Below the pieces are notes generated by a model. That model was not told the origin of the DNA. It saw nothing but the letters and a program-made list of their open reading frames with translations, and made no database searches. Below, piece by piece: positions 1 to 10,364 of a stretch of DNA of 29,254 bases (the first letter of the stretch is position 1; the number at the start of each line of letters is the position of its first letter). The DNA lies in assembly GCA_022571175.1 (NCBI GenBank), contig JACZYI010000001.1:1-29254 (forward strand), given 5' to 3'. Both the position numbers and the translations under genes were made by a program. This DNA is from Pseudomonadota bacterium (GTDB lineage Bacteria > Pseudomonadota > Alphaproteobacteria > Sphingomonadales > SMXR01).

Positions 1-378
1 CTCCTCACTCAAGAACCTTTGCAATTTTTGCGGATATTCGGCTTTTGGTATTGCAGTGCAAGTCTCCCAATGAGCTATCGTGCCCTCATCTATATTGAGC
101 ATTTTTGCCAAACGTTTTCGCGAAAATCCAAGAGTACGTCCACGATGAGCAATTTTTTCTCCCAATCTCTTTGGTGGTGGTAACGGATCGTAGTCGAGGA
201 ACTCAATAATCCGGGGTAGGTAGTGAACCTGTGGAAGTGTTTTATTTTTTTCCCAGTTGCCGAGCGTCCAATCACAGACGCTAAATCTTTTCGCCACATC
301 TTTTTGGAAAAGGCCAAGCTCATACCGCCTTTTGAGGATGTGTTCTCCAATAGTTCGTGGTGATTTCGGATAAGGCAT
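1..378 (-). CDS. Tandem XRE/Cro-C1 helix-turn-helix protein; runs off the left edge of the window; frame extends upstream to ATG 426
   Basis: Not in the ORF track because it has no stop inside the window. Hand translation from ATG 378 (GAGAG just upstream): MPYPKSPRTIGEHILKRRYELGLFQKDVAKRFSVCDWTLGNWEKNKTLPQVHYLPRIIEFLDYDPLPPPKRLGEKIAHRGRTLGFSRKRLAKMLNIDEGTIAHWETCTAIPKAEYPQKLQRFLSEE. Two XRE-type HTH repeats (GEHI.KRR.ELGL.QK.VA...NWE and GEKI..R...LG.S.K.LA.ML.IDE.TI..WE). Confidence 0.85.
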   Translation of the reverse strand, partial: MPYPKSPRTIGEHILKRRYELGLFQKDVAKRFSVCDWTLGNWEKNKTLPQVHYLPRIIEFLDYDPLPPPKRLGEKIAHRGRTLGFSRKRLAKMLNIDEGTIAHWETCTAIPKAEYPQKLQRFLSEE

Positions 379-425
379 TGATCTCTCAACAGAAAGTCGA
401 AAATGACAGGAAGGCAATGCCACCA
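1..425. mobile_element. Terminal segment (att junction) of a probable integrative element inserted in comM/yifB
   Basis: ComM similarity starts abruptly at about 414-428. Upstream DNA in the comM frame has a stop and encodes an unrelated HTH protein on the other strand. Hand count of GC: 186/420 (44%) for 1-420 versus 164/300 (55%) for 421-720. comM is an established integration target. No recombinase lies in the window. Confidence 0.7.
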
Positions 426-917
426 TGTCGCTGTGGCTATCTGGATGATCCGGCAATGGCGTGCAGCCGTGCACCAAAATGCGCCACTGAATATCAATCC
501 AAGATATCCGGCCCCTTGTTTGACCGGATTGACATTCACATTGATGTGCCGGCGGTCAAGGCGGGCGATTTGACCTTGCCACCCCCGGCTGAAGGTAGTG
601 CTGAGGTTGCGGCACGGGTACAAAAAACCAGACAGATTCAACTGGACCGCTATCGAGACCTGGAGTCTCCAGAGATCATCCGCACCAATGCCCAAATTGA
701 TGGCAAGCTGCTGGAAAAGGTTGCAGCACCGAGCACAGAAGGGAAGGCCTTAATGGAGGAGGCGGTGGAAAAAATGCACCTCACCGCCAGGGGCTATCAT
801 CGAGTACTCAGGGTTGCCCGAACGCTGGCAGATATGGAAAGGCAGGAAAAAATTGCCCGACATCACTTGGCAGAAGCCTTGAGCTATAGAAGAATAGCGC
901 CCCAAATGTTGGGATAA
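417..917 (+). pseudogene. comM: 3' fragment of YifB/ComM Mg-chelatase-family AAA+ ATPase; lacks the N-terminal and Walker A/B regions
   Basis: PCRCGYLDDP...C...YQSKISGPLFDRIDIHIDVP and LTARGYHRVLRVARTLAD...HLAEALSYR are ComM C-terminal signatures. The usual AAMNPC reads KAMPPC and nothing upstream matches. Confidence 0.9.
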
Positions 918-7574: not shown

Positions 7575-10364
7575 ATGTACGGCGATGTAGACCATAAAAG
7601 AAAAATAATTAATCGAAAGCAGTTGGCGCTGCAACTCGAGAATGAGCTTGACGGCAAGTCGGGCGAAGCGTGTAAAGTAATCCTTCTTTCGTGTCTTAAA
7701 AAAGCGCTCAAAACAGGCACACAAGTGGTGCAAAATCGATTGGAGTCAGGCTTAATCGACGGCCTGACCGCGGCACAGGCCCTAAGCTACCTCATGGATC
7801 AACTGATCCGTACTCTTTACGATGCCACAACAATGCATGTTTTCCCGCTCGGAAATCCCACTGAAGCCGAACGGCTGGCACTGGTCGCAACGGGTGGATT
7901 TGGCCGAGCAACTTTGGCACCCCATTCTGATATCGACCTGCTTTTCCTCCATCCCTATAAACCAACAGCATGGGCGGAGAGCGTGGTGGAATATATGCTC
8001 TATATTTTATGGGATATGGGGCTGAAGGTGGGTCATGCAACGCGGTCAGCGGATGATTGTATTCGCGTATCGGCAAAAGACCTGAGTGTCAAAACATCGT
8101 TGCTTGATGCGCGCTACATATGGGGAGACCAAAGCCTTTATACGAAACTGACCGCACGCTTTCATAAGAAATTGGTGGCGGGTCGCGGCACTGAATTTGT
8201 TGAAGCAAAGCTGGCGGAACGGAACCAGCGTCATTTACGCATGGGCGATTCCCGATATGTGGTTGAACCAAATATCAAGGAAGGCAAAGGAGGCCTTCGC
8301 GACCTCCACACTCTTTTCTGGATTGGCCGGTTTCTGTTCGGTGTAAAGGAAATCAGTGGCCTGTATGAGCAAGGTTTTTTGACGCGGGACGAATTGCGCC
8401 GTTTTGTAAAATCTGAAAGATTTTTGTGGACCGTGCGCTGTTATCTTCATTTTTTAACCGGAAGGGCTGAAGAGCGCATTACATTTGATGTCCAGAAGGA
8501 GCTGGCAGAGAGACTGAGATATCATGACCATCCAGGTCTTTCAGGTGTCGAACGCTTTATGAAGCATTATTTTCTGGTGGCGAAGCAGGTTGGAGATTTG
8601 ACCCGTGTTTTTTGTGCCAGCCTTGAGGCGCGCCAATACAAAAAAAGGCTGCTCCGCTTTTCCCGGTTTGCGCCCAAGCGAAAGGTTGATGATTTCAGAC
8701 TGGATGGAGACCGGTTGACGCTCTTGCATGAAGATGATTTTGAGACGGATCCGGTAAAACTGATCAGGATTTTCTGGGTTGCAGAAAAACACGGTTACGA
8801 CATTCACCCCGATGTCCTGCGTCTTATCATTCGGAGCCTGTCCCGGATTGATAACGCCTTGCGGACAAATTCGGACGCCAATCGGTTGTTTCTGGAAGTG
8901 TTGACGTCACCCAAGACACCTGAAATCGCCCTGCGTAGAATGAATGAGTCGGGAGTGCTTGGACGGTTCATTCCGGATTTCGGGCGCATTGTCGCTCAGA
9001 TGCAGCACGATATGTATCACCATTATACGGTAGACGAACATTCAATTCGGGCGATTGGTCTTTTGTCTCGCATTGAGAAGAATGAACTGGTTGATGAGCA
9101 CCCGCTCGTGAGCAAAATAATTGAGAGTGTTTCGTCCAGGCGTGCACTCTATGTTTCCGTTTTTCTGCACGATATTGCCAAAGGCCGGGGTGGTGATCAC
9201 TCCCGTATTGGAGCTGATATTGCCCGTCGATTATGCCCCCGGCTTGGCATGACGCCATCAGAGACTGATTTGACAGCATGGCTGGTTCGATATCATCTGT
9301 TGATGAGCCATTTTGCTTTCAAGCGTGATCTGTCGGATTCACAAACCATTGAGGATTTTGCCAAAATAGTCAAAAGCCACGAAAGACTTAAGCTCCTGAT
9401 TTCATTAACAGTTGTTGATATTCGTGCGGTGGGTCCAGGCATTTGGAATGGCTGGAAGGGGCAGCTCTTGAGGGAGCTCTATCAGGCAGCGGAACAACGA
9501 TTAATGGCTGGGCATATGGCGGTCGGTTGGAAAGAGCGCGTATTGGAGAGCCAGGAAAAACTTAAAAGCCGTCTCCAGGAAATGCCTCCTCACGAAGTCG
9601 AAAAGCTTTTGGCGATCATGCCGAGCGCCTACTGGATTGCCGAGAATACTGAGCTGCAGGAAGATAACGCACGGCTGATCCTGGCTGTCCAGAAATCCGG
9701 AAAATCTTACGGTGCGGCAATCAATAGTGATCCAGAGCATTCCATTACCAGGGTCTCCATATTCGCTGAAGATATGCCGGGTCTTTTTGCCAAACTATCG
9801 GGCGTTCTTGCGCTGGCGGGAGCAAATATTCTTGATGCCAAGATTTTCACCACAAGTGATGGCTTTGCGCTCGATAATTTTTCCATTCAGGAACGGGATG
9901 GATCTGCTTTTGATGATCAGAAAAAACTGGCCAGATTAAACAGATTATTAAAGGACGCATTTGAACGGAAGATTGATATTGACCTTTTGTTGGCCCGAAA
10001 ACCGATGATTCCCTCCCGCCGAGATATTTTTACGGTGGAGCCCTTGATCATTTTTGACAATAAGGCCAGCTCGCGCCACACGGTGCTCGAAATCAGTGCA
10101 CGTGATCGGATCGGTCTGCTTCACGATCTGACCAAGCTGCTTTACGAAGAGCATATCTCGATCTTCAGTGCGCATGTGGCAACTTATGGTGAGCGGGCGG
10201 TTGACGTCTTTTATATCCATGATGCTGAGGGCAAGAAGATTACCAGCAAGAGAAAGTTACAGTCCCTAGATAACAAACTTGCAAAAGTTGCCTCGACCGG
10301 TCCCGTTTATTTAACAAAAGAGACCCAAAAATCGCTCAATGAGAGCCCCACCAGCAGAAAATGA
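7575..10364 (+). CDS. glnD: [Protein-PII] uridylyltransferase / uridylyl-removing enzyme
   Basis: NT domain GGFGR..LAPHSDIDLLF, EPNIKEGKGGLRDL, HD domain (HHYTVDEH, LHDIAKG), two C-terminal ACT domains (DMPGLFAK, DRIGLLHD). Confidence 0.96.
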   Translation: MYGDVDHKRKIINRKQLALQLENELDGKSGEACKVILLSCLKKALKTGTQVVQNRLESGLIDGLTAAQALSYLMDQLIRTLYDATTMHVFPLGNPTEAERLALVATGGFGRATLAPHSDIDLLFLHPYKPTAWAESVVEYMLYILWDMGLKVGHATRSADDCIRVSAKDLSVKTSLLDARYIWGDQSLYTKLTARFHKKLVAGRGTEFVEAKLAERNQRHLRMGDSRYVVEPNIKEGKGGLRDLHTLFWIGRFLFGVKEISGLYEQGFLTRDELRRFVKSERFLWTVRCYLHFLTGRAEERITFDVQKELAERLRYHDHPGLSGVERFMKHYFLVAKQVGDLTRVFCASLEARQYKKRLLRFSRFAPKRKVDDFRLDGDRLTLLHEDDFETDPVKLIRIFWVAEKHGYDIHPDVLRLIIRSLSRIDNALRTNSDANRLFLEVLTSPKTPEIALRRMNESGVLGRFIPDFGRIVAQMQHDMYHHYTVDEHSIRAIGLLSRIEKNELVDEHPLVSKIIESVSSRRALYVSVFLHDIAKGRGGDHSRIGADIARRLCPRLGMTPSETDLTAWLVRYHLLMSHFAFKRDLSDSQTIEDFAKIVKSHERLKLLISLTVVDIRAVGPGIWNGWKGQLLRELYQAAEQRLMAGHMAVGWKERVLESQEKLKSRLQEMPPHEVEKLLAIMPSAYWIAENTELQEDNARLILAVQKSGKSYGAAINSDPEHSITRVSIFAEDMPGLFAKLSGVLALAGANILDAKIFTTSDGFALDNFSIQERDGSAFDDQKKLARLNRLLKDAFERKIDIDLLLARKPMIPSRRDIFTVEPLIIFDNKASSRHTVLEISARDRIGLLHDLTKLLYEEHISIFSAHVATYGERAVDVFYIHDAEGKKITSKRKLQSLDNKLAKVASTGPVYLTKETQKSLNESPTSRK

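Follow-up and report, generated by a model that had tools for sequence, protein, structure and literature searches.

A tandem helix-turn-helix gene beside a split comM is probably a C-terminal module cut off from a serine recombinase gene that carries attP in its own reading frame

Serine integrases are prized as simple one-protein tools in which a separate factor sets the direction of recombination, and engineered fusions of a serine integrase with its recombination directionality factor (RDF) alter that direction. The Protein Data Bank holds a chain in which a partner domain is joined to a serine integrase, the SPbeta SprA(YokA)-YotN fusion. The engineered fusions are man-made and have the directionality factor as partner, whereas the partner considered here is a natural tandem helix-turn-helix (HTH) module of the XRE family. 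Targets enriched among large serine recombinases (LSRs) include Mg chelatases and competence genes (Durrant et al. 2022; PMC10083194, Supplementary Note 1), and the sr1WO prophages are found in the Mg-chelatase gene of Wolbachia, their recombinase and HTH_XRE genes lying at opposite ends (10.1101/2021.11.04.467296; PMC5062602). The family described below resembles these LSR elements, including phage WO of the sr1WO type (Cautellavirus), in that it inserts inside a Mg-chelatase-like gene (comM/yifB). The papers on WO and on comM-targeting LSRs, with WO compared by its published description, do not state that attP lies inside the recombinase frame or that the HTH is a detached tail.

Recombination sites inside integrase genes are known from other enzymes. 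Myxococcus phage Mx8 (IntP/IntX) has attP inside the integrase coding sequence, and integration generates a new 3' end and changed properties (PMC6070905); Mx8 Int is a tyrosine recombinase with a short C-terminal swap, whereas here a serine recombinase would lose a 145-aa tandem DNA-binding module which survives as an ORF. The SSV-type 'suicidal' integrases of archaea carry the recombination site in the integrase ORF, and the gene is partitioned on integration (PMC7253208). These too are tyrosine recombinases, and both of their pieces are inactive pseudogenes, while the cut considered here falls in a linker and leaves a body with all canonical LSR domains. In mycobacteriophage BPs and its relatives, attP lies in the 3' part of an HTH repressor gene and the form of the protein is set by the integration state (PMC4557955; PMC3694055); there the tyrosine integrase is separate and a C-terminal degradation tag is removed on integration, whereas here the HTH belongs to the recombinase itself. 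Unlike the BPs type, the present junction marks the 5' end of the HTH module, with a serine recombinase as the partner ORF. LSR targeting of Mg-chelatase/comM is therefore already known, as is an att site within an integrase ORF, the latter only for tyrosine recombinases (Mx8, SSV). For serine recombinases, a search of full-text literature turned up no account of a gene that its own attP interrupts, which is not proof of absence.

The window, meaning the whole stretch of 29,254 nucleotides analysed here, is the entire contig C224 of a 1.9-Mb metagenome-assembled genome (MAG; 270 contigs, 78% complete). The features at its left end are listed in Table 1. On the plus strand, positions 414-917 match Mg_chelatase profile positions 155-205 followed by Mg_chelatase_C (Pfam), which is the 3' third of comM; this part is 68-72% identical in amino acids to the comM 3' parts of genomes of the same family and is followed by the host genes for an MFS transporter, maeB and mutS. 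The GC content is 44% to the left of 426 and 54% to the right. A sequence-only reading of the window had reported a minus-strand frame open from 555 to 1, in which ATG 426-424 falls at the comM breakpoint and is followed by a double XRE-HTH protein, and all of this was confirmed by translation and Pfam. The frame has a stop at 558-556 and reads DSHSDMVALPSCHFRLSVERSMPYPKSPRTIGEH (translation of window 1-600), and the product starting at ATG 426-424 is MVALPSCHFRLSVERSMPYPKSPRTIGEH. Pfam detected two HTH_3 stretches in this protein (E 6e-10, 39.5 bits against a cut-off of 23), placing it with the Cro/C1-type HTH regulators of the XRE family. An AlphaFold2 model (pLDDT 88) showed residues 1-25 as coil, followed by two four-helix HTH units, for each of which the best Foldseek matches were DdrO, P22 c2 and 434 Cro (TM by target 0.7-0.8), with ImmR and SinR also found. 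A complete second tandem-HTH gene (143 aa) lies on contig C123 of the same MAG (L005, 12298-12729) and has 81% nucleotide identity to that of the window. By comparison with this paralogue and with contig extensions, an estimated 3-4 codons of the window gene are lost at the contig end. The dN/dS between the two genes is 0.24, which corresponds to purifying selection.

Table 1. Coordinates of features around the comM junction of the window
Feature	Position	Strand	Evidence
Tandem XRE-HTH ORF, probably the detached C-terminal module of a split LSR gene	1..426	-	Pfam, AlphaFold2, LSR alignment
Putative element-side (P') half-site, extent approximate; also encodes (M)VALPSC	405..425		Motif conservation; inverted-repeat arm
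Crossover dinucleotide of the attR junction	426..427		Flank divergence at 427; attL/attR pairs of four genomes
Displaced comM 3' part, Cys codon to stop codon	426..917	+	Pfam; ORF list
Open antisense-of-comM stretch, probably not coding	427..555	-	Translation; upstream extension not conserved in relatives
Putative host-side (B') half-site inside comM, extent approximate	428..450		Position next to crossover; similarity to attR of L025, L023 and L028

The sequence-only reading had asked whether fusions of a recombinase with this HTH module exist, and they do. Two loci from Patescibacteria (L022, 663 aa; L031, 615 aa) each contain a single ORF with Resolvase and Recombinase domains and an HTH tail (Pfam), and the same architecture was present in 13 of 75 database relatives of the recombinase. 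In tblastn, residues 517-659 of L022 aligned with the window protein at 44.8% identity and with the C123 protein at 50%, over 143-144 aa with the linker and VA(F)LP included; tblastn, Pfam and alignment agree that homology to the C-terminal domain of the unsplit proteins extends along the entire small HTH protein. Residues 1-25 of the window protein correspond to the linker of the unsplit enzymes, an origin which their unstructured state fits. The catalytic domain of the unsplit LSR matches TP901-1 integrase and SPbeta SprA. The unsplit LSR-HTH proteins are 615-689 aa long and read through an inverted-repeat att site: at the boundary between body and tail lies the inverted repeat GGCAACGCG ... 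CGCGTTGCC, with arms of 8-9 bp and a 10-bp spacer, and the crossover is its centre. At least 22 of the same 75 database relatives end in a C-terminal GF[MI]AA, the peptide obtained when comM AAMNP is read in antisense, and more of them finish with the RDS-type tail known from verified comM junctions.

Unsplit genes with an intact internal att site were seen in long, apparently chromosomal contigs (L022 503-2494; L031 8420-10267; L082 1229-2836; L086), and one CPR genome (G068) holds an unsplit gene together with an intact comM. The unsplit-gene contigs L084 and L085 had no terminal overlap that would indicate circularity. The latter, a 10.6-kb contig, encodes between 4486 and 7807 a TraG/TrwB-like coupling protein, a SMODS (CBASS-type) nucleotidyltransferase, a PD-(D/E)XK nuclease and a SymE-like toxin, a cargo typical of a mobilisable defence island. 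In the window's class, 401 genomes were sampled and only one contained the LSR subfamily. The best LSR matches among 50,697 phage records were only 25-31% identical, and the HTH protein had no close phage match either.

Stand-alone homologues of the HTH protein are rare, with 11 found in 5.8 billion proteins, and have the N-terminus (M)VALPxCH in common; a scan of species-representative genomes added 16 HTH loci from many phyla. A comM 3' fragment adjoins the HTH start in 11 of the 24 loci examined (the window, L012, L015 and L023-L030), and homologues thus do recur beside a split comM, a point on which the sequence-only reading had made its proposal depend. All-against-all clustering of ORFs showed that only the HTH and comM are shared among 23 loci, and that the cargo is wholly variable (RHS toxins, type II secretion-like genes, defence genes). 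Eight genomes holding a comM-abutting HTH were searched with a query consisting of the recombinase body only. Four of them (G041, G043, G044 and G047) contained LSR bodies 55-65% identical to L022 which end near residue 493-510 (~500 aa) and abut a comM 5' part; the cut end of the body (L038, L039, L040, L046) meets comM residues 1-349 convergently, at exactly ...AAMNP. These four genomes therefore have the LSR body and comM 5' part at one end of an island and the HTH and comM 3' part at the other. Both junctions lie on one contig in G047, ~35 kb apart, with the comM halves colinear and the body and HTH on the same strand. When the recombinase side of attL was joined in silico to the HTH side of attR, a stop-free frame of 698, 661, 662 or 650 aa resulted, so that the rebuilt attP, on which an excision-dependent fusion hinges, is in frame in all four related genomes. 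The joints (for example ...RPHNL|RVALPFC...) resemble the unsplit ...RPHRRVAFLPF.... In the integrated arrangement the body stops 6-8 codons past the joint in three genomes and ~30 codons past it in G047.

The junction in the window reads ..CCA|TGT CGC TGT GGC, with the break at 426/427. Similarity to the C123 paralogue ends at window base 427, and two further metagenome contigs part from the window at exactly this base. Among the contigs of four marine metagenome runs, a comM junction contig without differences from the window was found in run X1, and the two non-comM flanks that diverge at 427 were the C123 flank and a third (X3). A base-exact break in three contexts argues for site-specific recombination. 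No attP-type contig and no empty site were found among the assembled contigs of the four runs, assemblies being prone to drop rare forms. The C123 and X3 flanks were considered as attP and rejected, there being a stop 21 codons upstream in C123 and no inverted-repeat partner in either flank.

The crossover dinucleotide is TG in the comM sense, where it begins the Cys codon that follows AAMNP, and CA in the recombinase sense. This TG is the common junction position of the window, L025, L026, L029 and the attL loci. The attL and attR of the four genomes share CAGGG here, with only CA shared in G044, and this reduction of the common core identifies the TG of the Cys codon as the exchanged dinucleotide. 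The A of the start codon ATG 426-424 is part of it, and the host codons CCA TGT together with the core CATGG imply that this ATG was created by the junction. Many relatives have AGG, AAG or CCC as the junction codon, which leaves the tail without a start codon at this point, while the motif GCGTTGCC/GGCATTGCC is kept at the P' place in all relatives, even those without the ATG. The MVALP start would thus be a by-product of the core in the window's lineage, and the conserved DNA beneath it the element-side half-site, which may be bound by the recombinase; the first bases of comM beyond the crossover are the candidate B' half-site. An explanation of MVALP as a motif conserved at the protein level only was partly rejected, as the DNA motif persists with AGG, AAG or CCC and forms an arm of the att inverted repeat. 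On the plus strand, AGGAAGG followed by ATG 417-419 (window 408-419) stands in frame with the displaced comM 3' fragment, and L025 has an analogous in-frame ATG inside the element-side half-site.

Taken with the relatives, window 1-426 is probably the C-terminal tandem-HTH module of an LSR gene which had attP in its own reading frame and was cut by integration into comM, and the window's copy is likely to have arisen as did those of the four split genomes. According to this model attP would lie inside the LSR frame, in the linker that joins recombinase body and HTH tail, and integration at the TG of the comM Cys codon following AAMNP would cut both comM and the LSR gene. The body (~500 aa, with all canonical LSR domains) would remain at the far junction and run a few codons into antisense comM, and the HTH tail would be left at attR as a separate small ORF, to which the CATGG core would give an ATG in the window's lineage. 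On excision, comM would be restored and the two parts of the LSR gene would be fused again in frame. The suggestion that the product differs between the integrated and circular states is supported by the relatives: the module would be a separate 145-aa protein or none in the former and the C-terminal domain of an LSR of ~650 aa in the latter. The split-LSR reading also accounts for the break of the contig at this place and for the truncation of comM in the window. Against it stand the unsplit genes in chromosomal contigs, the rarity of the LSR subfamily in the window's class, the failure to find an attP-type contig in the metagenome assemblies, and the genomes, that of the window included, in which the LSR body was not found.

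Because the cut falls in the linker, the integrated recombinase keeps all canonical domains, and two enzyme architectures would result, depending on the state of the element. This change of architecture may have a regulatory role, for example with the full-length enzyme integrating and the truncated one, with or without free HTH, acting differently; the most likely form appears to be one in which the state of the element controls recombination or the expression of its genes. A more specific proposal, which we regard as rather unlikely, is that the covalent state of the enzyme records the state of the DNA and sets the direction of recombination, the circular element having a full-length, integration-competent enzyme and the integrated one a tail-less enzyme, with or without free HTH, that is locked or excision-competent, so that the HTH would replace a directionality factor.

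Other accounts of the small ORF itself fared poorly. It could be a stand-alone XRE-family regulator such as an element repressor, unrelated to the recombinase and starting beside the att site by coincidence, in keeping with the likeness of its HTH units to phage repressor and Cro domains (P22 c2, 434 Cro, DdrO, ImmR, SinR) and with the stand-alone homologues of 143-153 aa given by gene callers. This is very improbable, since the alignment with the C-terminus of unsplit LSRs spans the entire protein and its linker, the halves rejoin in frame in four of four genomes, many relatives have AGG or AAG rather than a start codon at the junction, and neither a sigma-70-like promoter site nor a Shine-Dalgarno sequence was found upstream of ATG 426 on the minus strand. 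Nor does the open frame upstream of 426, to which the sequence-only reading had attached meaning, carry weight, as it is the antisense of comM and its 43 open codons (427-555) are within chance (probability ~0.14). It is equally far-fetched that in the integrated state translation starts within antisense comM, for example at TTG 477, which is in frame in the stretch open from 555, and adds a host-derived N-terminal extension to the HTH protein: such a stretch is expected about once in seven cases, there is no conservation upstream (in the C123 copy the flank differs and has a stop 21 codons up), and homologues start at MVALP or at a TTG within the MVALP segment. Transposons of the Tn7-like type that target comM have TGT...ACA ends, a 5-bp target duplication and tnsABC near the right end. 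A Tn7-like transposon end was rejected for the window, where the end begins with CATGG and not TGT, the 23 loci share no transposition genes but only HTH and comM, and an LSR and comM meet at the junctions without a duplication.

The present state of the window's copy is a separate matter from its origin, on which the split-LSR account and the following one agree. The copy may now be a recombinase-less module, a fossil attR (HTH and comM 3' fragment) at the border of a cargo island. Homologous recombination in the conserved 3' segment of comM, or a related LSR acting in trans, would then account for the movement of such islands; there would be no fusion in cis, and the HTH would be a free regulator or decaying. 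We give this somewhat less than an even chance. Among the relatives that abut comM, half are modules without a recombinase, stacked behind a comM that has been restored. No such LSR was found in four of the eight genomes searched; in three of these the HTH modules are relics of this kind, and in the other (G042) the HTH sits at a contig end with no second comM copy seen. In L026 and L029 an intact 506-aa comM lies ~8 kb away from the fragment with no recombinase between them and no such LSR genome-wide, L027 and L030 have two fragment-and-HTH modules in tandem, and the mosaic comM of L026 bears the signature of one homologous crossover. In the MAG of the window, searches with Pfam (PF01078, PF13541), blastn and tblastn found no LSR body, which agrees with a recombinase-less module, but found no comM 5' part and no intact comM either, and the missing LSR is weak evidence in a 78%-complete bin of 270 contigs in which the contig ends inside the HTH gene. 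Against a recombinase-less module also stands the state of the HTH, which is usually damaged in such loci (frameshifted in L026 and L030, shortened in L029) but intact in the window; with the purifying selection noted above this favours a live element. The chances that the recombinase half of the window's copy still exists are about evenly balanced. The claim that excision fuses the recombinase gene to the double HTH accordingly stands for the family, on the four genomes, and may or may not extend to the window's own copy.

The comM copies of the recombinase-less islands lie at 9510-10020 and 17768-19288 in L026 and at 9575-10046 and 17929-19449 in L029, and in both loci the last ~470 bp of the intact comM repeats the fragment. 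Compared with the closest relative of L026, its intact comM changes from host-like to foreign sequence ~135 nt past the site, and the fragment changes in the opposite order. An element-borne comM 3' copy with a tyrosine integrase, after the model of e14 and icd, was rejected, as Pfam found no integrase in the islands of L026 or L029, the mosaic of L026 is that of a homologous crossover, and the full elements truly split comM.

The flank of the C123 copy is intergenic and lies beside a histidine phosphatase gene, not comM; this flank and the third one, which comes from another metagenome run, may be secondary integration sites or relics. A stretch of ~25 nt (L005 12722-12747, and the contig extensions past window position 1) is identical at 21 of 25 positions to the anticodon-loop/T-arm part of tRNA-Met and overlaps the stop codon of the HTH paralogue. 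ARAGORN found no whole tRNA at this place; the resemblance may be coincidental, or the stretch may be what is left of the att site of a different element. Within the order or family of the window's organism, relatives G010, G014 and G003 have comM split elsewhere (at ~residue 285 in G010, into three pieces in G014), which indicates that other elements also target comM.

For annotation, the split-LSR reading would mean that many 'orphan' tandem-HTH genes beside comM fragments are halves of one gene, with many LSRs of ~500 aa that carry odd tails (GFMAA...) as their counterparts, and that the intact enzyme, which is of interest for genome engineering, is rebuilt only by joining the ends of the island. 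A gene that spans its own attP would yield a different enzyme architecture before and after integration, and this would be a new way of coupling the activity or regulation of a recombinase to its integration state.
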